A DNA stretch of 64,000 nt from a phage (PV467749.1), one strand, 5' to 3'; shown: positions 1-12,990, counted from the stretch's first letter. The notes: a model not told the origin generated them from the sequence alone. Made by a program: numbers and translations.

Positions 1-176
1 ATGTAATTATACACATTGGCTTCTTGATAGTTAGTTCCCAGTGTAGCTTGAACATAGATTTCATTTAACTTAATAATTTTATCAGTATCTGGTAGTTTTG
101 ATGTGTTAATGGCAAATAACTTCAAAAACAGTCCATTTAAGATTGTTAGGTATTCTTCGTCGGTAATGATTCGCAT
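1..176 (-). CDS. family-1 small protein (LGTNYQ motif), C-terminus cut by window edge
   Basis: Minus frame reads MRIITDEEYLTILNG..ATLGTNYQEANVYNY and runs off the left edge; same layout as the copies to its right. Confidence 0.6.
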   Translation of the reverse strand, partial: MRIITDEEYLTILNGLFLKLFAINTSKLPDTDKIIKLNEIYVQATLGTNYQEANVYNY

Positions 177-382
177 TTGCATTGGATAAACCTTTTTAGT
201 TCTTTGATGTAATCATTAATATTGCATTCTTGATAGTTAGTCCCTAGGGTAGCTTGAACATAGATTTCACTCATTAGAATATTTTTTTCTTCATCAGGTA
301 AATCTGTGGTCTTTGCTATATACAATTTTAGAATTAAACTACTTAATAGTTCGTGGTATTCACTTGGTGAAAGGATTTTCAT
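146..382 (-). CDS. family-1 small protein (LGTNYQ motif)
   Basis: Motif ATLGTNYQE. Start set at MKIL, giving an ATGA overlap with the upstream stop (track start 388 adds MQ). Confidence 0.75.
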   Translation of the reverse strand: MKILSPSEYHELLSSLILKLYIAKTTDLPDEEKNILMSEIYVQATLGTNYQECNINDYIKELKRFIQCKCESLPTKNT

Positions 383-594
383 TTGCATGTTCTCAGTACA
401 GATTCTTTAAGTTCATCGATGTAGTCCTCAACGAATTGCTCTTGGAAGTTAGTTCCAACATATAAAAGAACTCTTAAATCTGCTCTAAGTAACTCTTTTT
501 CATCATCATCTATATCAGACAATGTTATGTTTAAGAATTTACTTGTATTAAAGATTAACAATTCTGTTTGTTCACTGTGGCTTAAAATTTTCAT
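379..594 (-). CDS. family-1 small protein (LGTNYQ motif)
   Basis: Tandem paralog, motif YVGTNFQEQ, N-terminus MKILSHSEQ. Confidence 0.75.
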   Translation of the reverse strand: MKILSHSEQTELLIFNTSKFLNITLSDIDDDEKELLRADLRVLLYVGTNFQEQFVEDYIDELKESVLRTCK

Positions 595-802
595 AATCTC
601 TTTTTGCTTTCCTCGCCAAAAGGTACATATACGATTCTTCGTATTGTGCTTGGTAGTTTGTGTTTAAGAGTCGAAACAACTTCTGTTCTGCTAGAACGAG
701 TTGCTTATCTTCATAACAACGATAGCGTATCAACTTTTTGTATTCGATGTTGATTACATCCATTACTATAAGCCCATGTTCATCATCTGTCAAGTGTTTC
801 AT
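572..802 (-). CDS. family-1 small protein (LGTNYQ motif)
   Basis: Tandem paralog, motif LLNTNYQAQ; ATGA overlap with upstream gene. Confidence 0.75.
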   Translation of the reverse strand: MKHLTDDEHGLIVMDVINIEYKKLIRYRCYEDKQLVLAEQKLFRLLNTNYQAQYEESYMYLLARKAKRDYENFKPQ

Positions 803-1041
803 GCATTTTTTCTTTTTCTTATATGTTTAGTTAAAAGGTATATTAGTTTTCTGATGTATTCTTCTTGGTAGTTTGTTCCTAGGAGTGCAAGAAGCTTTGC
901 TTCAACTAGAGCTAATTGACGTTCTTCAAATGTGTGTTCCAGTATGTACTTTGGGTTTGATTTTTTAGAAATTGCACTATTAGTTTTCATTACAATCTTA
1001 TGATATTCATTAACTGTTAGGATTTTTAAATTCTTGAGCAT
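799..1041 (-). CDS. family-1 small protein (LGTNYQ motif)
   Basis: Tandem paralog, motif LLGTNYQEE. Confidence 0.75.
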   Translation of the reverse strand: MLKNLKILTVNEYHKIVMKTNSAISKKSNPKYILEHTFEERQLALVEAKLLALLGTNYQEEYIRKLIYLLTKHIRKRKNA

Positions 1042-1255
1042 GTACCTTTTCCTTTATAGAGAATTTAAGATATCGAAGCATACTTTCAATGTAATACTCT
1101 TGTCTGTCAGTTCCAAGAAAGTACATGAGTTGAATGTATAAAACTTCTGCACTCCTTTCGGCAGGTGACTTGTTTGTGTCGTTTGGAAGTTGATTTGTAA
1201 GTTTTCTGGATTTAATTAATCGTTCTTTTAACTCATCGTCTGTTAAGTATTTCAT
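1010..1255 (-). CDS. family-1 small protein (LGTDRQ variant)
   Basis: Motif FLGTDRQEY. Start set at MKYLTDDE, 1 nt after the upstream stop (track start 1267 adds MQNE). Close to copies at 1257 and 1477. Confidence 0.75.
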   Translation of the reverse strand: MKYLTDDELKERLIKSRKLTNQLPNDTNKSPAERSAEVLYIQLMYFLGTDRQEYYIESMLRYLKFSIKEKVHAQEFKNPNS

Positions 1256-1256
1256 T

Positions 1257-1475
1257 TCATTTTGCATTTACTTTTTCCATAATACTCATTACAAGATGTT
1301 CAATCATATTTTGAACCATAAATTCTTGTTTATCAGTTCCAAGAACGTATTGTAGCTTCTGAAACAATACATTCGCAGACATTTCATATATTGATTGATT
1401 TGGAACGAACTTAAGAGTAATGTTATTGGCTTTTAACATCTTCTCTTGAAATTCTTCATTCGTTAAGTATATCAT
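1257..1475 (-). CDS. family-1 small protein (LGTDKQ variant)
   Basis: Motif VLGTDKQEF; start set at MIYLTNEE (track 1487 adds MQSE). Confidence 0.75.
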   Translation of the reverse strand: MIYLTNEEFQEKMLKANNITLKFVPNQSIYEMSANVLFQKLQYVLGTDKQEFMVQNMIEHLVMSIMEKVNAK

Positions 1476-1476
1476 T

Positions 1477-1701
1477 TCACTTTGCATTTATTTTTTCCAT
1501 AATAGTGATTTTAAGATATTTAATTATACGTTCAACGTGATACTCTTGCCTATCAGTTCCAAGAAGGTATGGTAATGACTGGAATAAAACTTCTGCACTC
1601 CTTTCCGCTGGGGTTTGGTTTGGGTTGTGTGGAAGATATTTTGTAAGTTTTTTGGATTTATCTAGTCTTTCTGTTAACTCATCATGTGTTAAGTATATCA
1701 T
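1477..1701 (-). CDS. family-1 small protein (LGTDRQ variant)
   Basis: Motif LLGTDRQEY; start set at MIYLTHDE, giving an ATGA overlap (track 1713 adds MQNE). Confidence 0.75.
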   Translation of the reverse strand: MIYLTHDELTERLDKSKKLTKYLPHNPNQTPAERSAEVLFQSLPYLLGTDRQEYHVERIIKYLKITIMEKINAK

Positions 1702-1940
1702 TTCATTTTGCATTTAATGTTCCTTACGTAAATTGTCTGGATTAAAAGTGAAATCCATTTTTCTACATATTGGTTTTGATACTGTGTACCTAAGAGGAAC
1801 TGCATTTTAAACTCTGCTTCAAGTTCATATCTCTTTTCTATAGAAAAGCTTAAATGACCATATTCCTTATCGTATCGTCTCATAGCTTCCCCAATTCTAT
1901 CAAATCTTTCTGCTAATCTGATGTTATTCACAATATTCAT
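1698..1940 (-). CDS. family-1 small protein (LGTQYQ variant)
   Basis: Motif LLGTQYQNQ; ATGA overlap upstream. Confidence 0.7.
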   Translation of the reverse strand: MNIVNNIRLAERFDRIGEAMRRYDKEYGHLSFSIEKRYELEAEFKMQFLLGTQYQNQYVEKWISLLIQTIYVRNIKCKMK

Positions 1941-2194
1941 CGATCAGTACACCTCAGTGGTTGGGTCATTTGATAAAAGTACAGCTTACCTTTGATTTCC
2001 AATAGTAACTCCGCGATTAAGCGATTTACTTCTGGCTCTTGATAGTTTGTTCCTAAGAATACACCCATCTTTAACTCACGCATCATAATCATTTTCTTAC
2101 TGTGTTGAATTTCTGGGTTGTGATAGATTGTATTACGTTTGTGTGTAATTTTTGTCATACGCTCGGTATATTCATCTTTACTTAAATTGATCAT
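1937..2194 (-). CDS. family-1 small protein (LGTNYQ motif)
   Basis: Motif FLGTNYQEP; ATGA overlaps on both sides. Confidence 0.75.
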   Translation of the reverse strand: MINLSKDEYTERMTKITHKRNTIYHNPEIQHSKKMIMMRELKMGVFLGTNYQEPEVNRLIAELLLEIKGKLYFYQMTQPLRCTDR

Positions 2195-2427
2195 TTTTTA
2201 TTCTCCAAAGCATCGCATTTATTTTCGATACAATTCATTAGTTCTCTAAGATAGTTTTTTACCTTACCTGCCTGATAGTTCGTCCCCAGGAAGTTGCATA
2301 ACTCTGCTTCTATTATTTTGATTCTTCTGTTATCAGGTTTCAATTTTTTGTTATTGAAGATTTGAATCCTTATATCCCTTGATGCATTTAAACGTTTTTG
2401 ATAATCATGGTAAGATAAATGAATCAT
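2191..2427 (-). CDS. family-1 small protein (LGTNYQ motif)
   Basis: Motif FLGTNYQAG; ATGA overlaps. Confidence 0.75.
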   Translation of the reverse strand: MIHLSYHDYQKRLNASRDIRIQIFNNKKLKPDNRRIKIIEAELCNFLGTNYQAGKVKNYLRELMNCIENKCDALENKK

Positions 2428-2636
2428 TTACTTTGTATCTCTCTCTTGAGGGCATCAATTAACAACAGTACAGCATTCTCTTGATAGTTTGTTCCTAAGA
2501 CTGAAAGCATCTTAATCTCATTTACTACAATCAACTTCTTTGAGCGTTCAATAATGTTACTATTATAAACGGCGTTACGTGCTGGATAAGTTTTTGCAAG
2601 ACGATCATAATATTCATCTTTACTTAAATTAATCAT
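2424..2636 (-). CDS. family-1 small protein (LGTNYQ motif)
   Basis: Motif VLGTNYQEN; start set at MINLSKDEY, giving an ATGA overlap (track 2642 adds MQ). Confidence 0.75.
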   Translation of the reverse strand: MINLSKDEYYDRLAKTYPARNAVYNSNIIERSKKLIVVNEIKMLSVLGTNYQENAVLLLIDALKREIQSK

Positions 2637-2851
2637 TTGCATTTACTTTTGACCTCTTTCAGTAGAGCATCAACCCATATGTCTACATACATTTGTTGAT
2701 AGTTTGTGTCTAATAGTGCACCTACATATAGTTCAGCTACCATTGCGTGCTTTAGGTCAACAGGGATGCTCTTATCAGATTGAATCTTTACCCTTCTGCT
2801 TCCACATGTTTTCAGAAGCTTAACATATTCGTAACCTATTAATTTTCTCAT
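2633..2851 (-). CDS. family-1 small protein (LDTNYQ variant)
   Basis: Motif LLDTNYQQM; ATGA overlap. Confidence 0.75.
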   Translation of the reverse strand: MRKLIGYEYVKLLKTCGSRRVKIQSDKSIPVDLKHAMVAELYVGALLDTNYQQMYVDIWVDALLKEVKSKCK

Positions 2852-3063
2852 TCTCTGGATAACACCTTGTTGCGTAAGGCACTTAACAATACGTCAGTGT
2901 AGATGTTTTGATAGTTTGTTCCTACGAAAGCACCCAACTTCATTTCAGCTATTATAACACATTTGTCCTCTTGTGCAATAGACTTGTCTAAAGAAATACT
3001 AACAACTTTCCTTCTTATAGCTTGTAACCTCCAATGATACTGAAACTCATTTAGTGTTATCAT
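2848..3063 (-). CDS. family-1 small protein (LGTNYQ motif)
   Basis: Motif FVGTNYQNI. Confidence 0.75.
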   Translation of the reverse strand: MITLNEFQYHWRLQAIRRKVVSISLDKSIAQEDKCVIIAEMKLGAFVGTNYQNIYTDVLLSALRNKVLSRE

Positions 3064-3298
3064 TATCTCGTCTCCATATCTCGGTTCTAATGTGTTGACA
3101 TTGTGCTTCGATGAACATATCTATTGATTTGGCAATTGCGTTTTTATCTGTGCCAGTCATCAGTACAAGCATCTCGGCCTCACAGTGAAGTAAACGCATG
3201 ATATCATAGGGTAATATTCCAGATACCGTGTCATAGTGTTTCTGTGCCAGTGTCTGTAATAGTTTACAATACATTTTGTGATTTAGTCTGTGTCGCAT
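3047..3298 (-). CDS. family-1 small protein, divergent member
   Basis: Same size and position in the array, but the motif is degraded to MTGTDKNAI. Confidence 0.6.
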   Translation of the reverse strand: MRHRLNHKMYCKLLQTLAQKHYDTVSGILPYDIMRLLHCEAEMLVLMTGTDKNAIAKSIDMFIEAQCQHIRTEIWRRDNDNTK

Positions 3299-3537
3299 TG
3301 TTTATTCCATTCTTTTTTTTTGGCCTTGATGGTTTTATATTGGATTTGGTTTCTTAATGCTGATAAGTATCGTTGAATGAACAGATCTTGATAGTTTGTT
3401 CCAATGAATTTCATAAGATAAAGTTCACCGTTGATAACATCCACTTCAGGTGCACCATATAAGGCATTGTTTTTTCTAAGGGCATGGATTAAAGAGAATA
3501 GGGCAGTTTGATACTCAACTCCTGATAAAATCTTCAT
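3283..3537 (-). CDS. family-1 small protein (LGTNYQ motif)
   Basis: Motif FIGTNYQDL; start set at MKILSGVEY (track 3558 adds MIICSQN). Confidence 0.7.
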   Translation of the reverse strand: MKILSGVEYQTALFSLIHALRKNNALYGAPEVDVINGELYLMKFIGTNYQDLFIQRYLSALRNQIQYKTIKAKKKEWNKQCDTD

Positions 3538-3772
3538 GTTTTGTGAGCAAATAATCATCTAGTTTATCCTGTATAACATTCGTTAATTGTTCGATATATT
3601 CTGTGCAAAACTTATCTTGATATTGAGTCCCCATAAAGTACAGCAACCATAGCTCATTAACTTTAGCTCGCATTTGGTTCCATGTAAGGCTGGGGTCATC
3701 GTAGACTATCCTTGCTATAGGGGTTAGTTTACGGACTATAGTTTCATATTCATCTAGTGTTAAGTGTTTCAT
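3515..3772 (-). CDS. family-1 small protein (GTQYQ variant)
   Basis: Motif FMGTQYQDK; ATGA overlap upstream. Confidence 0.75.
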   Translation of the reverse strand: MKHLTLDEYETIVRKLTPIARIVYDDPSLTWNQMRAKVNELWLLYFMGTQYQDKFCTEYIEQLTNVIQDKLDDYLLTKHEDFIRS

Positions 3773-3987
3773 TTACATTTGTCCCTTATTAGATCAGTGA
3801 GGGCAACTATGTGTGCAACAACATACTCTTCCTGAAAGTTCGTCCCCAGTACAGCCATCATGCGTATATCGGTGGTGTTTATCCTGTGTTCCCTTACACA
3901 TAAACCTTCTGTGTGAGGAAGTGTAAAATATTTGTTTATTGCAGCAACGATAATTTTATTCTTCTCGGAGTTACTTAAATGTTTCAT
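3769..3987 (-). CDS. family-1 small protein (LGTNFQ variant)
   Basis: Motif VLGTNFQEE; ATGA overlaps. Confidence 0.75.
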   Translation of the reverse strand: MKHLSNSEKNKIIVAAINKYFTLPHTEGLCVREHRINTTDIRMMAVLGTNFQEEYVVAHIVALTDLIRDKCK

Positions 3988-4196
3988 AGTTTACTCCTGA
4001 TATAATTCTGAAGTGCAATTAAGTATTCCCCTACATAATACACCTGAAAGTCTGTATCAAGGAATGCACCCATAAGTAAATCTTTTTCTAATACCCTTGA
4101 TAAGTTAAGGTCTGCATTTGAAAGGTATATAAGTAAGATTTCACCCTGTGCGGAATTGAAACGTTTCTTATATTCTTCTGGTGTTAAAAAAATCAT
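3984..4196 (-). CDS. family-1 small protein (LDTDFQ variant)
   Basis: Motif FLDTDFQVY; close duplicate of 4193..4408 (shared DLNL..VLE..LLGAFL and YIRSKL). Confidence 0.75.
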   Translation of the reverse strand: MIFLTPEEYKKRFNSAQGEILLIYLSNADLNLSRVLEKDLLMGAFLDTDFQVYYVGEYLIALQNYIRSKL

Positions 4197-4408
4197 AATT
4201 TGCTCCTGATATATTTCTCAAGAGATGACAAATACTTTTCCTCATAATACTTCTGATAGTCTGTTCCTAAGAATGCACCCAAAAGTATTTCATTTTCCAA
4301 TACCTCGGCTAAGTTTAAATCAGAAGTCTCTTCGTATATTATGAGGATTTCAAGTTGTCTGGCAGCGATGCGTTCAGTATATTGATATGAGTTTTCTATA
4401 ATAATCAT
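4193..4408 (-). CDS. family-1 small protein (LGTDYQ variant)
   Basis: Motif FLGTDYQKY; ATGA overlaps. Confidence 0.75.
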   Translation of the reverse strand: MIIIENSYQYTERIAARQLEILIIYEETSDLNLAEVLENEILLGAFLGTDYQKYYEEKYLSSLEKYIRSKL

Positions 4409-4614
4409 AATTTACTCTTTATATCTTGAATTAAAAATCGAATCCATTCTTCAACATAATCTTCCTGATGGTTTGTGTTCAGTACAGCCAACATGCGGAT
4501 CTCTGCTCTTGCAACTTCAATTTCAGTTTTAGGAAGGTCTTTGCTGATATCCACCATTAAGTCCATGTATTTCAAGATAAGACCGTATGATTGGGTTCGT
4601 GTTATAGTTTTCAT
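4405..4614 (-). CDS. family-1 small protein (LNTNHQ variant)
   Basis: Motif VLNTNHQED; ATGA overlaps. Confidence 0.75.
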   Translation of the reverse strand: MKTITRTQSYGLILKYMDLMVDISKDLPKTEIEVARAEIRMLAVLNTNHQEDYVEEWIRFLIQDIKSKL

Positions 4615-4811
4615 TGTTTCCTCGTGGACAATATTTTATTTTTCAATGTATCCATATATTGAATCACCCATCTTTCCTGATAGTTAGTTCCCAAAGTAAT
4701 CAAAAGGTATAACTCCATTCGTTCTACGTGTGTGTCTGTATTATAAATCTTTGTGAAGTTTTTACGTAACAGTTCTTGATAATCTTCTTTATTTAAAATA
4801 CGCATTTTCAT
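4611..4811 (-). CDS. family-1 small protein (LGTNYQ motif)
   Basis: Motif TLGTNYQER; ATGA overlap. Confidence 0.75.
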   Translation of the reverse strand: MKMRILNKEDYQELLRKNFTKIYNTDTHVERMELYLLITLGTNYQERWVIQYMDTLKNKILSTRKQ

Positions 4812-5005
4812 AGTCTACCTTTTATGTCCCTTCGTAATTCTTGTAAGTATAGTTCGATATACTTTTCTTGATAGTTAGTTCCTATGAAAAGTTTCATAAC
4901 CAATTCACGCTTATATGCAATACCACGGATATGTGACATATGTAGGATATATGCCATGTTGGATATGAGTGTGTGGTTGTGCTCTTCTTGAGTTAAAATA
5001 CGCAT
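4808..5005 (-). CDS. family-1 small protein (LGTNYQ motif), first gene of the array
   Basis: Motif FIGTNYQEK; SD GGAG upstream; a promoter lies just upstream. Confidence 0.75.
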   Translation of the reverse strand: MRILTQEEHNHTLISNMAYILHMSHIRGIAYKRELVMKLFIGTNYQEKYIELYLQELRRDIKGRL

Positions 5006-5035: not shown

Positions 5036-5063
5036 ATAATATACGATTCATATAAAAAGTCAA
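5036..5063 (-). promoter_or_regulatory. sigma70-type promoter for the family-1 array
   Basis: TTGACT-N16-TATTAT on the minus strand, about 30 nt upstream of the ATG at 5005. Confidence 0.55.
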
Positions 5064-5254
5064 TAACATTTTATAAGTAATACCCCTTTATCGAAGTCGC
5101 TAAGGTTACCCGCCCTTTAGCCCCCTACGCATTTTGCCATAGTCCAATCCCTTTTTATTCATAAAAGTCAAGGGATTACCTATGCATTTTTTTAACGCTG
5201 AAGTTTAAAAATGCCTTGACTTTTTTATGATTCAGTACTAAATCCTTTTACGCA

Positions 5255-5464
5255 TTAATCCTTCGTTACGCTTACGATTATCTGTGTATCCCCATAGTCC
5301 TGCCATACTTCCACGCCAGCCGTCGCCCTGGTTAGTCGTGCTGTCATCTGCTTAATGGTCTTAGGCTTTAGTGGAACCTGTTGCAGTACTGTACGCATAG
5401 CACTATCGACGTTATCATGTACGCCTGCAATAGTGCCTAGGACGCTGTATACTGTATAGAACAT
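5255..5464 (-). CDS. hypothetical protein
   Basis: 69-aa ORF, SD AGGAGGG upstream; GGCCGC..GCGGCC stem-loop in the leader. Confidence 0.65.
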   Translation of the reverse strand: MFYTVYSVLGTIAGVHDNVDSAMRTVLQQVPLKPKTIKQMTARLTRATAGVEVWQDYGDTQIIVSVTKD

Positions 5465-5532
5465 ATGTATGCCCTCCTGATATAGTTAAGGCCGCTACAA
5501 GGCGGCCTATGATGTTTGGTGATGTGTAACGC

Positions 5533-5934
5533 TTACAGTCCTAAGATAGTGCGTGCTTCGTTACGTTCCGTACACAGCTGCATGATGTGAGCAAGTAAGT
5601 CCTTGCTAATGTATCCGGTGTTCATAGCTTCACGAATAGATACATCATAAGCACCGAACCCAGTGCGAACGATACGCACATCATTCAGGTTAGTATTATA
5701 GATACCGCCGAGATCAACGGCTTCGAATACTACATCAACAGAATATTCATTGTTGCCATCGTGGAAGTTTTCCAGTGCAATAGTATTGGAAACCGCCCAA
5801 CGTTTGCAGTTTCCAATGATGCGGCACTGTTCCGGTTGGATAGTGCCATTACTTACAGCGTACTCCAGTGCATCTTTACCAAAAGTCCGAGCCAGTACTA
5901 AAACGTCAGCGAAGGAAGTGATTGAGAAGGTCAT
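5533..5934 (-). CDS. hypothetical protein
   Basis: Start moved to MTFSITSF (SD AAGGAG). The 21 extra residues in the track are read-through of the promoter/hairpin cassette. Confidence 0.75.
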   Translation of the reverse strand: MTFSITSFADVLVLARTFGKDALEYAVSNGTIQPEQCRIIGNCKRWAVSNTIALENFHDGNNEYSVDVVFEAVDLGGIYNTNLNDVRIVRTGFGAYDVSIREAMNTGYISKDLLAHIMQLCTERNEARTILGL

Positions 5935-5988
5935 GATAAAACTCCTTAATTTAGGAGGGAGAACCATTTCCCCCTCTCTATGTAAAAC

Positions 5989-6016
5989 ATTATACATGAA
6001 TCTAAGTACTATGCAA
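5989..6016 (-). promoter_or_regulatory. promoter + 5' stem-loop cassette (PeSL-like)
   Basis: TTGCAT-N16-TATAAT, then GAGGGGGAAATGGTTCTCCC hairpin (about 5954-5978); drives 5533..5934. Confidence 0.7.
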
Positions 6017-6023
6017 GTACTTT

Positions 6024-6356
6024 TTACATTTTGATACCTGGATTCAGGTAGCGGTGAGATCCATACTCTGGATCGGTTTCGGTCCAGTACTGTAAATCGA
6101 TAGTACCTTTCGCGTTAATCTTGTCTACCAGCTTATTCATCTTAGCGTATACTACATCAGCATCGATGCGTTTAAAGCCAGTGGCTTTAGTGAAGTAGTA
6201 GTGATTTGCTTCACTATCATTCAGGATGTACCGAGAACCGTTTGCCGTTTGTGCGATAATGATTGAGTATTCTACGTTACGGTCGAGGCCGTCGATGAAT
6301 ACAGAGGAAACATTAGTACGGATGAATGCTTTAACGATAGCGATTGAAGTAGTCAT
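6024..6356 (-). CDS. hypothetical protein
   Basis: 110-aa ORF, SD GGAGAT, own promoter. Confidence 0.75.
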   Translation of the reverse strand: MTTSIAIVKAFIRTNVSSVFIDGLDRNVEYSIIIAQTANGSRYILNDSEANHYYFTKATGFKRIDADVVYAKMNKLVDKINAKGTIDLQYWTETDPEYGSHRYLNPGIKM

Positions 6357-6409
6357 TTTGAATCTCCTAACTTTGTGGGCCGTCGCACCATTGCCGCCCT
6401 ACGAGATAC

Positions 6410-6438
6410 ATTATCGCAGTACTGATATACTTTGTCAA
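6410..6438 (-). promoter_or_regulatory. sigma70-type promoter
   Basis: TTGACA-N17-GATAAT, followed by a GC-rich hairpin; drives 6024..6356. Confidence 0.65.
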
Positions 6439-6550
6439 TACTTTTTTATTAATAGTTTTCACCCCACCAGCAGATAGTTACTCACCGTTATTAACTATAT
6501 ATTTTGGATACACCTATGCACCCTGTGGGCTAGTTTTTGTCTATGCGTAT

Positions 6551-6590
6551 ATAATAGCAAAGGGACTGACCGGAGTCAATCCCTTTTTTT
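6551..6590 (-). promoter_or_regulatory. terminator-promoter fusion cassette
   Basis: Hairpin GGGATTGAC-TCCG-GTCAGTCCC (6562-6583) contains the -35 TTGACT; N17; TATTAT (6551-6556). Sits directly after the stop of 6602..6802. Confidence 0.6.
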
Positions 6591-6601
6591 ATTCTTTTTT
6601 G

Positions 6602-6802
6602 TTAGATGATTCTCCAATCATCAACGATCATGGTAAGATACCGAACCAGTGATTCGAGTGATTCGTGTTCTCGATAGTCTGCCGCTCCACCAGCGGTACA
6701 AGTACAGCCGATTAAGCCGTTTTGTAGTTCCTGGATCTTTACGTCGATCTGGTTGGCTTTAGCTTCTTTCAGTACTGCAACCAGGGCGATAGCGATAGAC
6801 AT
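6602..6802 (-). CDS. hypothetical protein
   Basis: 66-aa ORF, SD GGAG, own PeSL-like cassette. Confidence 0.65.
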   Translation of the reverse strand: MSIAIALVAVLKEAKANQIDVKIQELQNGLIGCTCTAGGAADYREHESLESLVRYLTMIVDDWRII

Positions 6803-6857
6803 AATGTTTTACTCCAAACTATTGGCGGGAGAACTATTCCCCCGCTCTATGTAAAAC

Positions 6858-6885
6858 ATTATACATTACTGGTTAGTACTGTCAA
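6858..6885 (-). promoter_or_regulatory. promoter + 5' stem-loop cassette (PeSL-like)
   Basis: TTGACA-N16-TATAAT, then GAGCGGGGGAATAGTTCTCCCGCC hairpin. Confidence 0.7.
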
Positions 6886-6892
6886 ATAGTTT

Positions 6893-7150
6893 TTATGAAA
6901 TATCTTCGATGTAGTCGGCCCATTTCATTTTTTCAGTACTGTCAATGGCGACCGGATTATTTGGATCAAACCATTCACCATCACCGCAATACATACCCAC
7001 GGCTACGGTTTTATAGCCATCCTGGGCAGTACACCACGACATTGCACGATAGATATGGCCTTTAACTGGTTGCAGTACTGGTAACGTTTTATGGTCTTCT
7101 ACGTAGGCCATAGCTTGTGGATTTACCCGATATTGTGTGAACTGATCCAT
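6893..7150 (-). CDS. hypothetical protein
   Basis: 85-aa ORF with own promoter. Confidence 0.7.
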   Translation of the reverse strand: MDQFTQYRVNPQAMAYVEDHKTLPVLQPVKGHIYRAMSWCTAQDGYKTVAVGMYCGDGEWFDPNNPVAIDSTEKMKWADYIEDIS

Positions 7151-7178
7151 TATGTTTCCCCTTGTAGTTAGTAAAGTT

Positions 7179-7207
7179 ATTACATCAGTACTATCAAGCT
7201 ATGTCAA
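7179..7207 (-). promoter_or_regulatory. sigma70-type promoter
   Basis: TTGACA-N17-TGTAAT; no hairpin. Confidence 0.55.
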
Positions 7208-7226
7208 TAGTACTGAAATAAAACTT

Positions 7227-7451
7227 TTAGATTAGATTATTGAGGCCGTCAATGGTAGACTCACCTTCTTCTTTCTCCCATTGTCGGTAGTACTTCCATG
7301 CTTCATGATAGGTGGCGATTAGTTCATCTTTTTGATCCTGGTTACATGCCAGTACTGAATCACGGTGAGCGGTGTTATAGATAGAATCGAATGATTTCTT
7401 CTCTTCTGCCAGGTTAGCTACTTCCCGCATCAGTTCATCAAAGTTAGCCAT
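7227..7451 (-). CDS. hypothetical protein
   Basis: 74-aa acidic ORF, SD AAGGAG. Confidence 0.7.
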   Translation of the reverse strand: MANFDELMREVANLAEEKKSFDSIYNTAHRDSVLACNQDQKDELIATYHEAWKYYRQWEKEEGESTIDGLNNLI

Positions 7452-7498
7452 TTTATTACTCCTTTTAGTGGGGGAGGATATCTCCCCCTATGCAAAAC

Positions 7499-7526
7499 AT
7501 TATACTTTGTTTTAGTTATTATGCAA
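7499..7526 (-). promoter_or_regulatory. promoter + 5' stem-loop cassette (PeSL-like)
   Basis: TTGCAT-N16-TATAAT, then GGGGGAGATATCCTCCCCC hairpin (7470-7488). Overlaps the stop of the upstream gene. Confidence 0.7.
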
Positions 7527-7782
7527 GTACTTTTTTCATATAAACATTAAATTCTACACCGCCGTAACCTTCCACGATGATATGTTTTGCGTTATCACGT
7601 TTGCACATAGTGAAACCGTTGTTGATGTGTTCTGAATTTTCCAGGGCGACATCACCGATAGCGGCACATACAGCACTAATAACAGTATTCCGCAAAGTAC
7701 TGGTATCATTGGCGGTCATAGTAGTTTGCAGTACTACGTTGTCGTATACGTGTGCATTGATAGTGATTTCGATAGTGTTCAT
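7519..7782 (-). CDS. hypothetical protein
   Basis: Start moved to MNTIEITI (SD AGGAG). The track N-terminus MFYIERGKWF.. is translated cassette sequence. Confidence 0.7.
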   Translation of the reverse strand: MNTIEITINAHVYDNVVLQTTMTANDTSTLRNTVISAVCAAIGDVALENSEHINNGFTMCKRDNAKHIIVEGYGGVEFNVYMKKVLA

Positions 7783-7834
7783 GTTGTATCTCCTGGACTT
7801 GAGGGGAAACCATTTCCCCCTCTCGATATAAAAC

Positions 7835-7862
7835 ATTATACGTTAATCTAACTACAATGCAA
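7835..7862 (-). promoter_or_regulatory. promoter + 5' stem-loop cassette (PeSL-like)
   Basis: TTGCAT-N16-TATAAT + GGGGGAAATGGTTTCCCC hairpin. Confidence 0.7.
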
Positions 7863-7869
7863 GTACTTT

Positions 7870-8061
7870 TTAAATTTTATTTCCGATATAGTCCGGCATG
7901 TTCTTTTCAGTCATACGCTTTGCTAATGTCTGCATATGGCTTATAGCGTTCAAGGTGTCTTCCTCCAGGGATGAATCGAGATAATCAGGATCATTCTTCA
8001 CCTTGCAATGATTATGATAGCGTAGTACTGCCAGTACTTTTTTAACTTCTTCAACTGTCAT
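7870..8061 (-). CDS. hypothetical protein
   Basis: 63-aa ORF, ATGA-coupled to 8058..8330. Confidence 0.65.
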   Translation of the reverse strand: MTVEEVKKVLAVLRYHNHCKVKNDPDYLDSSLEEDTLNAISHMQTLAKRMTEKNMPDYIGNKI

Positions 8062-8330
8062 AATAAGTACTCCACTTCGTTAGCTTTCAGGTTAGTATCA
8101 ATCATCAATGGTTTTTTGTAGTTCACAAAACGATTAGTTTTTTCGATAGCAAATCCCATATAATCCAGCTTACTAACAGTACATTCATTCTTAAAAACTT
8201 CTTTCGCTGCATCGATGGCTGATTGCATGGATAACCGACCATCTAAATTAATGTTTCCAAATGATCCACCAGCAGAAGTAGGATTACCGTTCATATCTTT
8301 AATGATCATAGTAGCGGAGTAGCTGGACAT
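8058..8330 (-). CDS. hypothetical protein
   Basis: 90-aa ORF, SD AAGGAA. Confidence 0.7.
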   Translation of the reverse strand: MSSYSATMIIKDMNGNPTSAGGSFGNINLDGRLSMQSAIDAAKEVFKNECTVSKLDYMGFAIEKTNRFVNYKKPLMIDTNLKANEVEYLL

Positions 8331-8383
8331 AATTTTGTTTCCTTTTATTGGTGGGGAGAACTATTCTCCCCTTGATGTAAACT

Positions 8384-8411
8384 ATTATACAGTACTGATA
8401 TACTTTGTCAA
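8384..8411 (-). promoter_or_regulatory. promoter + 5' stem-loop cassette (PeSL-like)
   Basis: TTGACA-N16-TATAAT (TG-extended) + GGGGAGAATAGTTCTCCCC hairpin. Confidence 0.75.
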
Positions 8412-8417
8412 ATACTT

Positions 8418-8825
8418 TTATTCGCCCATATAGATTAGATTATCATCGCCTACATAGGGATCGCAAACGTTGATTTCTTCGCAGTACTTAGTGAATATAT
8501 CATCATAGTGACCGATATCACGATCCCAAAAACCAGTGCCGTGACCTTCGCGAGTAAGAAAGAGATCATGACCTGCATGACTATAAGTATAATCAGGATT
8601 ATGGTGTTTTTGTACTGTTTCCATATCTTCACCATGTACAGCAAGGAAACGTGAACATGCAATCACTGCCGCTTGATGGGCTTGCTCTGATAATTCATAA
8701 TCTTCCAGGTATTCGCCGTTCTCATTGTGTACTGTACTGAATTGCATAGCTTCAATGTAACCAGCGACCATTGCAGCATGATTTTTATCGTTGGCGATGG
8801 ACCGAGCTTGATTAGTAGTAGTCAT
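8418..8825 (-). CDS. conserved hypothetical protein (GHDLFLTREGHGTGFWDR motif)
   Basis: 135-aa ORF. The H-D-x-F-L-T-R-x-G-H-G-x-G-F-W-D motif resembles a widespread phage/plasmid domain that I cannot name. Confidence 0.8.
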   Translation of the reverse strand: MTTTNQARSIANDKNHAAMVAGYIEAMQFSTVHNENGEYLEDYELSEQAHQAAVIACSRFLAVHGEDMETVQKHHNPDYTYSHAGHDLFLTREGHGTGFWDRDIGHYDDIFTKYCEEINVCDPYVGDDNLIYMGE

Positions 8826-8877
8826 GATTTTATTCCTTTTAGTATCGGGGAGAACTATTCTCCCCTTGATGTAAACT

Positions 8878-8905
8878 ATTATACAGTACTGGTATACTTT
8901 GTCAA
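8878..8905 (-). promoter_or_regulatory. promoter + 5' stem-loop cassette (PeSL-like)
   Basis: TTGACA-N16-TATAAT + GGGGAGAATAGTTCTCCCC; near-identical to the cassette at 8384. Confidence 0.75.
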
Positions 8906-8908
8906 TAC

Positions 8909-9130
8909 TTAATTACGTTTAAAATGATATGTACCTTTATCATCCTGTACGCCCCATACTGATTTACCATTTAAACCAGTGAAGCCGGATTGTAATTCAA
9001 TATGGAAACCATTATTATCAACTACAAAAACTTTTTTATTTTCATCCCGATAGCATTGATATTCTTCACCTGCTTTAAATGCTGCATCATTCAGAAGATT
9101 TGAAGCGTGAACGCAGGTCATAGTAGTCAT
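8909..9130 (-). CDS. hypothetical protein
   Basis: Start moved to MTTMTCVH (SD AAGGAA); 45 track residues upstream are cassette read-through. Confidence 0.65.
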   Translation of the reverse strand: MTTMTCVHASNLLNDAAFKAGEEYQCYRDENKKVFVVDNNGFHIELQSGFTGLNGKSVWGVQDDKGTYHFKRN

Positions 9131-9185
9131 CGTCTTGATTCCTTTTAGTACTAGGGAGAACCATTTCCCCCTCTCGATATAAAAC

Positions 9186-9213
9186 ATTATACGCTCATTG
9201 AGATAGTTTGCAA
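9186..9213 (-). promoter_or_regulatory. promoter + 5' stem-loop cassette (PeSL-like)
   Basis: TTGCAA-N16-TATAAT + GGGGGAAATGGTTCTCCC hairpin. Confidence 0.7.
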
Positions 9214-9307
9214 GTACTTTTTTAAAAATAGTTTTCAGTACTGAATACTTATATAATAGATACACTTCCGCACCCTATGGGTCAGTGAGTTATCTCTCAA
9301 TGGATAT

Positions 9308-9347
9308 ATAATAGCAAAGGGACTGACCGGAGTCAATCCCTTTTTTA
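9308..9347 (-). promoter_or_regulatory. terminator-promoter fusion cassette
   Basis: Hairpin 9319-9340 (GGGATTGAC-TCCG-GTCAGTCCC) carries TTGACT; N17; TATTAT. Follows the stop of 9355..9939. Confidence 0.6.
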
Positions 9348-9354
9348 ATCTTTT

Positions 9355-9939
9355 TTATCGTGTTACCTTACTTGCTGCCACATCACGCTTTTTATAGTAC
9401 TGATTCCAGATATTGCAGGTTAAACCGTAATCAAGTACTTTAATAAGGCCATTACGATCCTGGCCGATATTCTGTTTTCTGATATCTCTTATCGTTAGTG
9501 TTGATAATGTATCATCGACGTGTTGTAGTGCATCAGCAAAGCGGTGCTGGCGTTCGATTGCATTACGTTTAATATTGTACTTTAATTCATTGCACGCGTT
9601 TACGTGCTTCACACTACCTTTGCTTGCAGTACTCAACCGATCCATAACGATAAACATATTATCAGGATCGCATAAATGCATATGCACCTTTGCAAAGTAC
9701 TGTTTCAACTGAGGGCGGTCATAGTCTAAAAAATTCCATACCTTACATTCAGTTTCATTTTGTTCTACACCCGCATCACAATTCGCGACCTTAATCACTA
9801 ACCGATCATTTAAAGCGAAAACTATACGGGAAGAACCAGCACCGATGATCTCCAGGCCAGCTAACCGACAAGCTGAAAGGATCTCTTTGTTGGTTTCCAT
9901 TTCTGACAGTGTACGGATGAATTTAGTATAATTACGCAT
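9355..9939 (-). CDS. minimal protein-kinase-like protein
   Basis: Start at MRNYTKF (SD AAGGAG). IGAGSSRIVF (Gly loop), VIKV (Lys), DIRKQN (catalytic loop), LDYG (DFG-like); ends about 20 aa after DYG. Confidence 0.6.
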   Translation of the reverse strand: MRNYTKFIRTLSEMETNKEILSACRLAGLEIIGAGSSRIVFALNDRLVIKVANCDAGVEQNETECKVWNFLDYDRPQLKQYFAKVHMHLCDPDNMFIVMDRLSTASKGSVKHVNACNELKYNIKRNAIERQHRFADALQHVDDTLSTLTIRDIRKQNIGQDRNGLIKVLDYGLTCNIWNQYYKKRDVAASKVTR

Positions 9940-9967
9940 TGCATGTTCTCCTTGAGTTAATGAAACT

Positions 9968-9996
9968 ATATTACAGTACTTTACTATCAATGGCAA
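9968..9996 (-). promoter_or_regulatory. sigma70-type promoter
   Basis: TTGCCA-N17-TAATAT; overlaps the stop of 9971..10213. Confidence 0.5.
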
Positions 9997-10213
9997 CTAC
10001 TTTTTTAACATTAACGGCGTGGATCACTTCCTTCGTGTTTTTAGTACTGAATACTTTCGCCGCTCCTTGTTCGACCGTGATACGATAGCGACCATTAACA
10101 TCAACCATATTAATAAAGTCCGGCGTGCTGAATGGTGTTGTTTTACATTTGAGTACTGTTAACAGTTCCACCAGCGATGTAGTTTCTTTGATACGTTTTT
10201 CTAAAGTAATCAT
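9971..10213 (-). CDS. hypothetical protein
   Basis: Start moved to MITLEKRIK; the 19 upstream track residues (MTVLKCFST..) are promoter read-through. Confidence 0.65.
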   Translation of the reverse strand: MITLEKRIKETTSLVELLTVLKCKTTPFSTPDFINMVDVNGRYRITVEQGAAKVFSTKNTKEVIHAVNVKKVVAIDSKVL

Positions 10214-10241
10214 TTTGTTTCCCCCGTGTTGGTATGTACAT

Positions 10242-10270
10242 ATAGTACTAAAACATTTGAGTACTGTCAA
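10242..10270 (-). promoter_or_regulatory. sigma70-type promoter (duplicated unit)
   Basis: TTGACA-N17-TACTAT; the same 57-bp unit recurs at 10490-10546. Confidence 0.65.
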
Positions 10271-10489
10271 TTAGATAATATTATATTTCTTAAAATAAAA
10301 TGCGTCCTGTGTTGGTTGATACTCAATTCCATTGCCGTTATTGACTTCAACTAATAAACCTTTGTCAATAAGTTTTTTAATAGTACGATACCCTTGTTGA
10401 AAATTGGTAAAATGTGAATCATTACGAAAGGTATAACCGTGCTTAACTGCTTCATCAATAGTTTTCTTTTCGATTTTAGATAATTTCAT
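10271..10489 (-). CDS. hypothetical protein (possible winged-helix)
   Basis: Start moved to MKLSKIEKK; 72 aa; the KKLIDKGLLVEV segment is helix-turn-helix-like (weak). Confidence 0.6.
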   Translation of the reverse strand: MKLSKIEKKTIDEAVKHGYTFRNDSHFTNFQQGYRTIKKLIDKGLLVEVNNGNGIEYQPTQDAFYFKKYNII

Positions 10490-10517
10490 TTTGTTTCTCC
10501 CGTGTTGGTATGTGTAC

Positions 10518-10546
10518 ATAGTACTAAAACATTTGAGTACTGTCAA
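10518..10546 (-). promoter_or_regulatory. sigma70-type promoter (duplicated unit)
   Basis: TTGACA-N17-TACTAT; copy of 10242..10270. Confidence 0.65.
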
Positions 10547-10797
10547 CGTGATATTAGTTTTATTTTCTTATTGTATTGTTGATGCTCATAAAGGTTTATC
10601 TTTCCTGTGTTCTCGATTACTATCCTGTTGTTAGTGTCCACGTCGATTACACGCAGTTTCCCGTTGCTTAACTTCCTAGGTAATAGGTTACCATTAATAA
10701 ACTCATTAGCAAGCTGTACGGCCTTTGTGATGATTCTCTGAGGTGCTTTATAGTGTACCCGTAAGATGTTATCTTTATATAGTTGAACCTTAATCAT
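10543..10797 (-). CDS. hypothetical protein
   Basis: 84-aa ORF downstream of a terminator hairpin. Confidence 0.65.
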   Translation of the reverse strand: MIKVQLYKDNILRVHYKAPQRIITKAVQLANEFINGNLLPRKLSNGKLRVIDVDTNNRIVIENTGKINLYEHQQYNKKIKLISR

Positions 10798-10810
10798 TTT
10801 GTTTGTCCGA

Positions 10811-10837
10811 TAAAAAAGGCGGGAACTGATCCCGCCG
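10811..10837 (-). terminator. rho-independent terminator
   Basis: GGCGGGatcagttCCCGCC followed by TTTTTT on the minus strand, after the stop of 10859..11254. Confidence 0.7.
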
Positions 10838-10858
10838 TGTTGTTAGTACTGCAAGTTA

Positions 10859-11254
10859 TTAGATAACCTGGCGGCGTTTACTGTATACTGTTACACGATT
10901 ACCCTTACGATCATGTCGGATCTCTTTCTGGTTGCGAATCAGTTCACTTGGACGCTTAAGGTTTGCCAGGTGATCCGCGTGAGTCCATGCGGTGTGGTTT
11001 ACCTGTACTTTGATATCAGAATCAGCGATAAACTCATCTTGTGCGTCAAGTATTGCCGCCAGCATATCCGCTCGTTTTAGTTCTGCTGCTGTCAGTACTG
11101 GCTCAGGTGAATTCACAATATCAGAGATTTCTTTGAACTGTACGGCCCAGCGTTGACCTTTCGGTGCATCTTTGCCCATGTCTTTAAATGCTGCTCCTTC
11201 CTCGCGTGCAACAATACGGGCAGCTTCACGGGTAGCGTAGAATTTAGTAATCAT
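10859..11254 (-). CDS. hypothetical protein, paralog of 22841..23107
   Basis: Shared FATREAAR..FKDMG..KRWA..DRKGNRVTVY; start set at MITKFYATRE (track 11263 adds MYT). Confidence 0.75.
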   Translation of the reverse strand: MITKFYATREAARIVAREEGAAFKDMGKDAPKGQRWAVQFKEISDIVNSPEPVLTAAELKRADMLAAILDAQDEFIADSDIKVQVNHTAWTHADHLANLKRPSELIRNQKEIRHDRKGNRVTVYSKRRQVI

Positions 11255-11298
11255 GGTATACATCCTATTAGTTAAGTTAGTACTACAAGTTAGAGTCT

Positions 11299-11327
11299 AT
11301 TATAAAGTACTATCTGGACAGTGTCAA
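11299..11327 (-). promoter_or_regulatory. sigma70-type promoter
   Basis: TTGACA-N17-TATAAT. Confidence 0.65.
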
Positions 11328-11349
11328 ATAGTACTTTAAATGGATTCTA

Positions 11350-11673
11350 TTACATGTCTTTCTTACGTTTTACATCGTGGTAGCGAACTGTAATTTCTTT
11401 GTTGATCTCTTCCTCGATGCGGTGAATAACTTTTTCTTTCGGGTTGAAACCTATAACGGTTTCTTTAATGATCTCCAAGCCCGTGTATTCGCCTTGTGTA
11501 CCGTAACCGTATGTAAAGGTTTCGTGTCCCAGGTCTTCCCAGCGATCACCAATCAATGCGGACACGTAGCAGGAGTGGTAAGTATTGCCGTGGCTATCAG
11601 TCCACCGATTAACTTTAATGTCAAAGGAGGTTACAATTTTCAGTTCTACTTTCTGGGTAAGGATCATAGCCAT
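11350..11673 (-). CDS. hypothetical protein, paralog of 17861..18184
   Basis: Shared RWTDSxGNTYHSCxVS..FTYGY..V(K/Q)RKKD. Confidence 0.8.
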   Translation of the reverse strand: MAMILTQKVELKIVTSFDIKVNRWTDSHGNTYHSCYVSALIGDRWEDLGHETFTYGYGTQGEYTGLEIIKETVIGFNPKEKVIHRIEEEINKEITVRYHDVKRKKDM

Positions 11674-11729
11674 TTTTATTTCTCTCTCTTTGTTAGGAGG
11701 GGAACCATTCCCCTCGCTTGATGTAAACT

Positions 11730-11757
11730 ATTATACAGTACTAAGATACTTTGTCAA
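11730..11757 (-). promoter_or_regulatory. promoter + 5' stem-loop cassette (PeSL-like)
   Basis: TTGACA-N16-TATAAT + GAGGGGAATGGTTCCCCTCC hairpin; about 85 bp near-identical to the cassette at 11999. Confidence 0.75.
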
Positions 11758-11760
11758 TAC

Positions 11761-11943
11761 TTATTTTTTGGAAAGTTTACGCATTAATTCTACGCTTTCT
11801 TGTGAACGTTTTGCTACCTGGCAAGCTGTATGGGCAGTAAACATTTTTGTATAGTCTGACGCTTTGCCACCGAACCGAGCGGCACGTTCACGGGCACTTG
11901 GAACTAATACTATTTCTTTCTTGCAGATAGTGCACTTAGCCAT
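11761..11943 (-). CDS. hypothetical small basic protein
   Basis: 60-aa ORF MAKCTICKK..; own cassette. Confidence 0.65.
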   Translation of the reverse strand: MAKCTICKKEIVLVPSARERAARFGGKASDYTKMFTAHTACQVAKRSQESVELMRKLSKK

Positions 11944-11998
11944 TTTTATTTCTCTCTTTTAGTTAGGAGGGGAACCATTCCCCCTCTCGATGTAAACT

Positions 11999-12026
11999 AT
12001 TATACAGTACTAAGATACTTTGTCAA
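11999..12026 (-). promoter_or_regulatory. promoter + 5' stem-loop cassette (PeSL-like)
   Basis: TTGACA-N16-TATAAT + GGGGGAATGGTTCCCC hairpin. Confidence 0.75.
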
Positions 12027-12029
12027 TAC

Positions 12030-12305
12030 TTAAGTATTGTAAATGTCGTGAATAGTGATAAAGTTTTTACGACCGTAAACATGTAAATCAGTATCAATGT
12101 AGTGCTTATCAAGTACATCATCGACGCTTAAAGACGTGTCGTGAATATCTTCATAAAATTGTGGATCAACAATCGTGCTTAAGTCATCTGGCGTTAACTT
12201 ATCGTTAAGGCATTGAACCGCCTGGATATCTGCTTCACGTTTCCATTGTTCCAGATTAGTAGTCAGTACTTGCTCGATTTCGTTAGCTGTAAGTAAAGTC
12301 CGCAT
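12030..12305 (-). CDS. hypothetical acidic protein
   Basis: 91-aa ORF downstream of tandem promoters. Confidence 0.7.
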   Translation of the reverse strand: MRTLLTANEIEQVLTTNLEQWKREADIQAVQCLNDKLTPDDLSTIVDPQFYEDIHDTSLSVDDVLDKHYIDTDLHVYGRKNFITIHDIYNT

Positions 12306-12320
12306 TTTAATGTTTCCTTA

Positions 12321-12510
12321 TCAGTGGTTGATGTAAGTATTATACTCGTTTACTTTCTATTGTCAAACTATTTTATCAGGGGAGTTTTTCGTATGTCTTA
12401 CTCCTGGACTACTTAACGGGGTTACTTATTTCGTTCCCCGTCCTGATGTAAAACATTATACTTGATTCTAAGTACAATGCAAGTACTTTTTAAAAATAGT
12501 TTTCAGTACT
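12321..12510 (-). repeat. ~190-bp dual-promoter unit with structured ~75-nt spacer (copy A)
   Basis: Near-identical to 22107..22298. P1 12455-12482 (TTGCAT-N16-TATAAT), two-hairpin spacer, P2 12339-12366 (TTGACA-N16-TATAAT). Confidence 0.75.
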
Positions 12511-12572
12511 AGCCACCAGTAAACAATAGATACATTTATGCACCCGGTGGGCTGATTTGTTTCTATGCGTAT

Positions 12573-12611: not shown

Positions 12612-12619
12612 AATTATTT

Positions 12620-12939: not shown

Positions 12940-12990
12940 TATACTTTCCTCTTTGTTCGGAGGGGAACTATTCCCCTTCCGATATAAAAC

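Follow-up and report, generated by a model that had tools for sequence, protein, structure and literature searches.

Tandem paralogs with a predicted private three-helix fold lie beside the terminal repeat of an Asteriusvirus phage

The terminal multigene families of African swine fever virus (ASFV; MGF100/110/360/505) and of poxviruses are tandem, divergent, non-structural paralogs that lie near the genome termini and vary in copy number between isolates, and host-range or immune-evasion roles have been demonstrated for them. Here, we analyzed a locus of comparable organization in a phage. The DNA studied was a 64,000-nucleotide stretch of record PV467749.1 (the window), in which positions 1-5005 of the minus strand are occupied by an array of 23 small head-to-tail paralogs; the corresponding arrays of relatives hold 20-32 members, and their content varies between isolates. 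The array shares with the ASFV and poxvirus families the tandem arrangement of divergent paralogs by a terminal repeat and the variation in copy number. However, there is no relation in sequence or fold, the array proteins are much smaller, and a host-range or immune-evasion role has been demonstrated only for the eukaryotic viruses. The array itself had been noticed before, and these families of large eukaryotic DNA viruses make its kind a familiar one; new here are the definition of the family, its exact position relative to the direct terminal repeat (DTR), the prediction of a private fold, and the findings on paralog age, selection pattern, and cassette dynamics.

Several phage regions invite comparison. 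T4-type phages carry hyperplastic regions, which are fast-changing blocks of small early open reading frames (ORFs) with cassette-wise gain and loss and promoter-early stem-loop cassettes. In these regions, unrelated ORFs are shuffled via promoter and stem-loop repeats, which resembles the DTR of the present phage, with its promoter-in-hairpin repeats, and not the array. The pre-early region of T5, the host-takeover module of SPO1, and the DTR of PA5oct also place small genes with host-type promoters by a long DTR, as here; however, those genes are unrelated and mostly have their own promoters, whereas the array is one paralog family in a coupled operon just outside the DTR. Bacillus phage G contains a Zn-ribbon expansion of approximately 35 copies (Iyer et al. 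2021, PMC7824862). Like the array, it consists of tens of copies of one tiny protein in a jumbo phage. In contrast to the Zn ribbon, the array proteins are predicted to be all-helical and lack a Cys/His pattern, and phage G belongs to another lineage.

The direct precedent is one sentence in Hua et al. (2017, mBio), which mentions an array in phage 121Q and reads it as genome growth (PMC5646251). 121Q belongs to the same genus, and its locus holds 25 members at the same place, annotated as genes 319-341; it is almost certainly the array described here. The sentence comes without coordinates, family definition, function, DTR position, fold, selection, or turnover (PMC5646251). An initial annotation of the window, made from the DNA alone, had considered such an expansion unusual for a phage and without a recognizable homolog. 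The first statement was overstated, because the 121Q array had been mentioned in 2017 (PMC5646251). The second holds in that no annotated homolog was found; nevertheless, the family is catalogued as phrog_4148, which is merely a sequence cluster without annotation. The array is not discussed in the Asteriusvirus genome papers on fEgEco12, Sharanji, UE-S1, and phAPEC6.

As listed in Table 1, 22 complete minus-strand ORFs of 65-91 amino acids tile positions 146-5005, and a 23rd, of which 58 amino acids including the LGTNYQ motif are visible, is cut at position 1 (1-176). A hidden Markov model (HMM) built from the 23 copies recovered each of them at E-values of 1e-18 to 1e-27, in agreement with the gene count given initially, and detected no further family member in the rest of the 64-kb window, even at E<=10. 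When the longest ORFs were used, 12 of the 22 junctions were 4-nt ATGA overlaps and the remainder overlapped by 10-44 nt. With HMM-anchored ATG codons, there were 14 ATGA junctions, three gaps of +1/+2 nt, and five overlaps of 16-32 nt; up to 15 ATGA junctions are possible, depending on the choice of in-frame ATG. The packed overlaps noted at the outset were therefore confirmed at 12-15 of the 22 junctions. A Shine-Dalgarno-like element of the GGAG/AGGA/GAGG type precedes most array starts, and no minus-strand terminator-like sites were found inside the array.

The promoter ahead of gene 1 is conserved in six of seven aligned relatives, including WPEC3, vB_Ec-M-J, fEgEco12, 121Q, and the divergent JNE01, whose -10 box is the variant TAAAAT. 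The initial annotation had assigned the whole array to this promoter (5036-5063). The site is present and conserved, and service by a single promoter is plausible but not exclusive, because a second, promoter-like site (11/12) lies at 793-765 inside the array. The TTG-ACA of this internal site encodes the L-T of the family, and the site is kept at the orthologous place in eight arrays. An internal promoter shared by JNE01 and Turkey5 was rejected, since the identical hexamers belong to a non-homologous intergenic promoter of a downstream membrane-protein gene. Judged from its layout, the array forms one co-directional operon with predicted translational coupling and is the transcription unit that directly follows the left DTR.

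The position of the array was determined by mapping related genomes onto the window. At 80-99% DNA identity, positions 1-6500 matched 44 phage records. Each of these is a jumbo coliphage or a Salmonella phage from the PBECO4/121Q group (Asteriusvirus), to which the present jumbo coliphage also belongs, and WPEC3 is the closest match (94.7%). Position 1 of fEgEco12, its physical left end, maps to 25,573 in the window, the end of its 20,993-bp DTR maps to approximately 5,104, and its right-end unique DNA runs from 25,574 upward. The fEgEco12 DTR itself is backed by PhageTerm and restriction digests (PMC13070987). On this mapping, the window is a collapsed junction comprising the array (1-5005), the promoter, the DTR (approximately 5,104-25,573), and the right-end unique region; because it runs from the DTR into right-end unique DNA, the source assembly has collapsed or circularized the repeat. 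The array in the window begins approximately 100 nt beyond the left DTR. The distance from the DTR end to the first array gene is 98 nt in fEgEco12 and 99 nt in vB_Ec-M-J, which has an annotated DTR of 21,525 bp. The GC content of the array is 31.5-35%, compared with 37-40% in the adjacent DTR, where the genes are monocistronic and each lies behind near-perfect sigma70 promoters. Promoter-like sites in the DTR region numbered 94, versus 63.8±7.5 in shuffled sequences.

Nine of ten scanned array members matched phrog_4148 over their full length (E 8.8e-15 to 8.8e-26, profile positions 1-72 of 74). Gene 9 (3047-3298) was below the phrog_4148 threshold, yet it scored 59-65 bits against the HMM of the array, and the same three helices were predicted for it (predicted local distance difference test, pLDDT, 79.5). 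The motif of this gene, described initially as lost, is indeed degenerate, but G-T is retained and the gene occurs in seven phages. Scans of Pfam, NCBIfam, and PADLOC gave nothing significant, just scattered sub-threshold matches of single members; a profile search of all PDB chains gave an unrelated protein as the best hit (E 0.22); and the sole Foldseek hit outside the family was the non-significant T4 Vs.4 (E=5, template-modeling (TM) score 0.38). Searched with the profile, a set of 1.84 billion representative proteins yielded just 73 clusters, 72 of which are single-domain proteins of 52-121 amino acids, whereas a 2178-amino-acid repeat protein was discarded as a spurious match. The named sources of the family clusters are all Asteriusvirus phages or contigs of approximately 350 kb in E. 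coli assemblies, and every protein is labeled hypothetical.

For comparison between genomes we used nine phages out of the more than 40 Asteriusvirus genomes in existence, namely the present one, WPEC3, vB_Ec-M-J, fEgEco12, 121Q, PBECO4, A4, JNE01, and Turkey5, whose 233 family proteins clustered at 62% identity into 57 ortholog groups. Among these groups, the strongly conserved columns were L4, E8, Y9, E40, L43, L47, G48 (95%), T49 (98%), and Q52 (98%), followed by Y59, I60, L63 (93%), I67, and K70. The central box had been called invariant; this is nearly so for G, T, and Q and does not apply to the preceding L (65%) or to N and Y (47-49%). Likewise, the N-terminal motif attributed to all members is shared in part (K 54%, L 63%, E 72%, and Y 64%). 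The recurring DNA word encoding the box, CTTGATAGTTNGTTCC, was borne out, with 11 matches at two or fewer mismatches against 0.09 expected.

The AlphaFold2 (AF2) model of gene 7 consists of three helices (pLDDT 97.2), and independent models of six further members, taken from BFVD, superpose on it with TM scores of 0.68-0.88 (target-normalized). In the model, T-x-x-Q forms the exact start of helix 3, the preceding L-G pairs with the N-terminal M-K-x-L strand, and each helix has a hydrophobic position at intervals of 3-4 residues. According to helix-capping rules, S/T-x-x-E/Q is the pattern of a capping box or helix N-cap. From the placement of T-x-x-Q and the hydrophobic periodicity, we infer that the LGTNYQ box is a fold determinant of this type, and not a catalytic, ligand, or active site. 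Among the 23 sequences, no pattern of Cys or His is conserved, and neither a membrane segment nor a signal peptide is obvious. Their isoelectric points (pI) range from 4.5 to 9.9 and their net charges from -7 to +9, and the last 20 residues carry a net charge of -3 to +6. The C-terminus, which was initially described as basic and helical, is thus predicted to be helical, but it is basic in some members only.

These properties bear on the idea that the paralogs are nucleic-acid-binding regulators, acting as transcription or translation factors or coating DNA like the phage G expansion might. Three-helix proteins with a pI of 8.5 or more in 14 of the 23 members would suit such a role, and transcription-factor or structural DNA-binding roles were suggested for the phage G proteins (Iyer et al. 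2021, PMC7824862). No recognizable DNA-binding fold or domain, helix-turn-helix or other, was detected in the family, and the spread of pI and net charge shows that a uniformly basic surface is not a family property. We consider this explanation unlikely.

The paralogs in the window are 14-61% identical (mean 32%, median 32%). The closest sets, named by their left coordinates, are 1477/1257/1010 (44-61%), 146/1 (53%), 2424/1937 (51%), and 3984/4193 (50%). Two of these sets had been presented as very similar neighbors that show ongoing local duplication, but identities of 44-61% (1010/1257/1477) and 50% (3984/4193) do not bear this out. Because even the closest pair reaches only 61% identity and other Asteriusvirus genomes hold one-to-one orthologs of most paralogs, the duplications predate the divergence of these phages; what continues is the loss, gain, and replacement of cassettes. 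A recent dosage amplification ("genomic accordion") was rejected, since no near-identical copies are present (maximum 61%, median 32%), and this low identity rules out dosage selection as well. Between the dosage and diversity selection that had been proposed, diversity consequently fits better, with paralogs averaging 32% identity.

One-to-one orthologs gave a pooled dN/dS (ratio of nonsynonymous to synonymous substitution rates) of 0.30-0.39 in seven genome pairs, and the small genes on the DTR side gave 0.14-0.23 at comparable dS. The array genes are real and held by purifying selection. The initial annotation had named a known repeat protein mis-split into ORFs as an alternative; the different frames, the separate starts and stops, and the dN/dS values support separate genes. 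A single mis-split repeat protein was rejected because each unit has its own ATG and stop, the ATGA overlaps put successive units into different frames, and cassette gains and losses respect gene boundaries. Adjacent cassettes diverge very unevenly, with a proportion of synonymous differences (pS) of 0 to 0.47 relative to PBECO4, and this unevenness from gene to gene indicates mosaic recombination.

An iterated profile search detected 31 members in WPEC3, 29 in vB_Ec-M-J, 30 in fEgEco12, 25 in 121Q, 31 in PBECO4, 23 in A4, 20 in JNE01, and 21 in Turkey5, and 32 in a Logan contig. The arrays of relatives are always co-directional and always begin just past the DTR. As had been suspected, the array continues to the left: the closest relatives carry five or six more contiguous members and two stray ones past the window's edge, so the full array in this phage probably comprises approximately 30 genes over roughly 6.5-9 kb. 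In seven genomes the arrays form a syntenic backbone with single cassettes present or absent and one local order swap, whereas the arrays of JNE01 and Turkey5 are an almost wholly different set, although the DTR proteins of these two phages are 94-100% identical to those of WPEC3. Relative to WPEC3, JNE01 and Turkey5 show a sharp mosaic boundary where the DTR ends, with the array and all sequence downstream of it replaced or below 50-70% identical. This boundary implies recombination at or near the junction of DTR and unique DNA. The family also extends further: a 101-kb metagenomic contig, found through one divergent hit and without DNA or protein match in the phage collection, holds at least 17 members in a block with a looser L-G-[TS]-x-x-Q motif. 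Given this distant contig, the organization as an array is older than the genus.

Such turnover matters for the possibility that the paralogs co-assemble into a hetero-oligomeric scaffold, compartment, or filament, as subunit variants and not as independent binders. The C-terminal helix, which is long and amphipathic and bears a conserved stripe of hydrophobic residues (columns 55/56, 59, 62/63, 66/67, and 70), would suit co-assembly, and the co-translated, stoichiometric operon layout suits complex formation. However, cassettes are freely lost, gained, and replaced among close relatives, which is hard to square with an obligate complex, and the charge of the members is very heterogeneous. A weaker point is that the main text on phAPEC6 virion mass spectrometry contains no gp46x-gp50x product (gp481c is a family member). 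Co-assembly therefore seems improbable to us.

The interpretation of Hua et al. (2017) was non-adaptive: the array would be leftover tandem duplication that expands the genome, with copies lacking individual function, as they proposed for both the 121Q and phage G arrays (PMC5646251). In keeping with this, arrays of anything from 20 to 32 copies occur with no obvious consequence, and the dN/dS of the array is approximately twice that of neighboring genes. Nevertheless, at approximately 32% identity all 23 copies retain open frames, starts, core, and motif, the ortholog dN/dS of 0.30-0.39 is well under 1, and an array is also kept in a distant phage lineage. In addition, the DTR ends are fixed, as backed by restriction mapping (PMC13070987), and a headful argument of space to be filled is thereby removed. 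We give little credence to non-adaptive expansion.

Our favored explanation, held tentatively and at somewhat less than even confidence, is that the array is an early operon of small host-directed binders or inhibitors that share a scaffold. The operon would be transcribed early by the host RNA polymerase, by analogy and because its promoter is of the consensus type, the neighboring DTR is full of perfect promoters, and in PA5oct, a related jumbo phage, the DTR genes are early and rely on the RNA polymerase of the host (PMC7318152). Each paralog would serve as a small module for protein binding and, through the variable faces of its helices 1 and 3, would engage a different host factor, probably to inhibit or redirect it, with host takeover or counter-defence as the likely roles; the panel would be kept for breadth of targets and not for dosage. 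Binders are suggested because the proteins are too small and featureless for catalysis, share a scaffold with differing surface and charge, and are encoded at a location typical of phage genes for host takeover and counter-defence. A fuller version, which we regard as speculative and rather doubtful, is that the array is a repertoire of approximately 30 mini-binders on a private three-helix scaffold, each neutralizing a different host defence or takeover target just after DNA entry, that the cassettes set the infectable strains, and that the array is a counterpart of the terminal families of ASFV and poxviruses.

The pattern of substitution is compatible with host-directed binders. The per-column pN/pS was 0.26 in the buried core, 0.66 on the most variable faces of helices 1 and 3, and 0.45 elsewhere, and parsimony counts were 288:75 in the core versus 529:426 on the chosen surface (Fisher p=2e-16). 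A first parsimony count had hinted at a large nonsynonymous excess at surface sites, but positive selection was dropped when normalization per site gave 0.66. For the binders or inhibitors against a variable host target proposed in the initial annotation, the per-column values show relaxed helix surfaces (pN/pS 0.66) but no pooled value above 1, and the proposal stays an inference.

Several points weigh against the proposal of host-directed binders. The surface columns were picked after the substitution counts had been seen, and their pooled pN/pS is still below 1 (0.66); for both reasons only relaxed constraint, and no positive selection, is claimed for these faces. Moreover, a conserved core with a freer surface is expected of any small helical protein. 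The whole region downstream of the DTR is hypervariable between phages, non-family genes included. The alignment behind the AF2 model consisted of only 22 paralogs, and the early timing rests on the match to the consensus promoter and on analogy. Literature searches on Asteriusvirus found no transcript, ribosome-profiling, proteomic, or defence-phenotype data. Known anti-defence proteins with solved structures (anti-CRISPRs, Ocr/Ard, Acb/Tad-type sponges, and others) showed no sequence or fold likeness to the family in the PDB profile search or Foldseek; this lack of likeness does not exclude an anti-defence function.

The same features, namely small size, a common scaffold with diversified surfaces, cassette turnover, and early position, would equally fit proteins whose targets are competitors, that is, an immunity-like or exclusion panel that would counter bacteriocins and the toxins or effectors of prophages and co-infecting phages. 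In bacteria, arrays of orphan immunity genes, whose products are small and diversified, are a known answer to many related toxins. However, no sequence or fold likeness to solved immunity proteins was found, and no cognate toxin genes were seen adjoining the array. We judge competitor immunity to be very unlikely, and the remaining probability falls to something not considered here.

Other features of the locus and its relatives were also recorded. The minus strand of window 6,800-25,300, which is the gene strand, carries 12 promoters that match TTGACA-16/17-TATAAT perfectly and many more sites at 10-11/12, and DTR promoters and genes are often followed by a hairpin and T-run terminator, in sharp contrast to the single-promoter array. 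A 38-nt element, AAAGGGATTGACTCCGGTCAGTCCCTTTGCTATTATAT, is repeated at 6586-6559, 9343-9316, and 12608-12581 (minus strand), with a variant at 16294-16267; it is a 12-bp-stem hairpin with a TTGACT -35 box in the 5' arm, followed by a TATTAT -10 box, and in this recalls the stem-loop cassettes with early promoters found in T4-type phages. The last DTR gene is separated from the array by a 250-nt spacer, which contains, within window 5,100-5,255, an inverted repeat, AATCCCTT...AAGGGATT, and a G-rich tract, GGGGGCTAAAGGGCGGG, adjoining the mapped DTR end; both may be linked to terminus recognition or termination. Just beyond the other DTR end, six tightly packed ORFs of 61-69 amino acids (25,876-27,067, minus strand) are not members of the array family by HMM and are perhaps another family of small genes.

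In relatives, additional genes adjoin the array. WPEC3 carries at 1,800-11,050, just beyond the position of the window's left edge, a second paralogous family of 100-210 amino acids that follows the array, with a shared motif resembling S-E-E-E-[YF]-F-Q-x-S-L-[VI]-x-D and with two isolated members of the array family interspersed, and in the distant 101-kb contig the array is followed by runs of genes of approximately 170 amino acids (phrog_12674). In two relatives an additional gene separates the DTR from the start of the array; it is 819 nt long in A4 (A4_316, 6,973-7,791) and 366 nt long in PBECO4 (gp231). The PBECO4 RefSeq record (NC_027364) annotates only about half of the 31 members detectable by HMM, so the published gene counts of older Asteriusvirus records understate the array.

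Table 1. Positions of the terminal repeat, the promoter sites, and the array genes in the window (aa, amino acids).
Feature	Position	Strand	Remarks
Direct terminal repeat (DTR), ~20.5 kb	5104..25573	-	Mapped from fEgEco12 positions 1 and 20,993
Sigma70-like promoter TTGACT-16-TATTAT	5036..5063	-	10/12 to consensus; ~30 nt upstream of gene 1
Internal promoter-like site TTGACA-17-TATAGT	765..793	-	11/12; inside coding start of gene 20
Array gene 1	4808..5005	-	65 aa; first after promoter; GGAG Shine-Dalgarno upstream
Array gene 2	4611..4811	-	66 aa; ATGA overlap with gene 1
Array gene 3	4405..4614	-	69 aa; ATGA overlap
Array gene 4	4193..4408	-	71 aa, pI 4.5; 50% identical to gene 5
Array gene 5	3984..4196	-	70 aa
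Array gene 6	3769..3987	-	72 aa
Array gene 7	3515..3772	-	85 aa; modelled: three helices 6-24, 31-45, 52-84, pLDDT 97.2
Array gene 8	3283..3558	-	91 aa as longest ORF; family-anchored start 3537 gives 84 aa
Array gene 9	3047..3298	-	83 aa; degenerate motif TGTDKN and 6-aa insertion; in 7 phages
Array gene 10	2848..3063	-	71 aa
Array gene 11	2633..2851	-	72 aa
Array gene 12	2424..2642	-	72 aa; alternative start 2636 gives ATGA overlap
Array gene 13	2191..2427	-	78 aa
Array gene 14	1937..2194	-	85 aa; 100% aa identity to fEgEco12
Array gene 15	1698..1940	-	80 aa
Array gene 16	1477..1713	-	78 aa; alternative start 1701; sub-cluster with genes 17, 18 (53%, 61%)
Array gene 17	1257..1487	-	76 aa; alternative start 1475; only here and in WPEC3 among 9 genomes
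Array gene 18	1010..1267	-	85 aa; alternative start 1255
Array gene 19	799..1041	-	80 aa, pI 9.9
Array gene 20	572..802	-	76 aa; among most conserved members (pN 0.013-0.019); 5' end holds internal promoter-like site
Array gene 21	379..594	-	71 aa, pI 4.5
Array gene 22	146..388	-	80 aa; alternative start 382 gives ATGA overlap
Array gene 23	1..176	-	Cut by window edge, 58 aa seen

Whatever the function of the array, the one-line interpretation given earlier is corrected, since the copies are old and individually conserved and are not recent filler duplication. If the binder proposal is true, a single operon would encode approximately 30 natural, well-folded proteins of approximately 70 residues, with a common scaffold and each with a different partner in E. 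coli or Salmonella, and new inhibitors of host or defence proteins could be drawn from one compact locus. The host range of therapeutic jumbo coliphages would also become more accessible, and the question of why large viruses retain terminal multigene families could be addressed in a tractable bacterial model.

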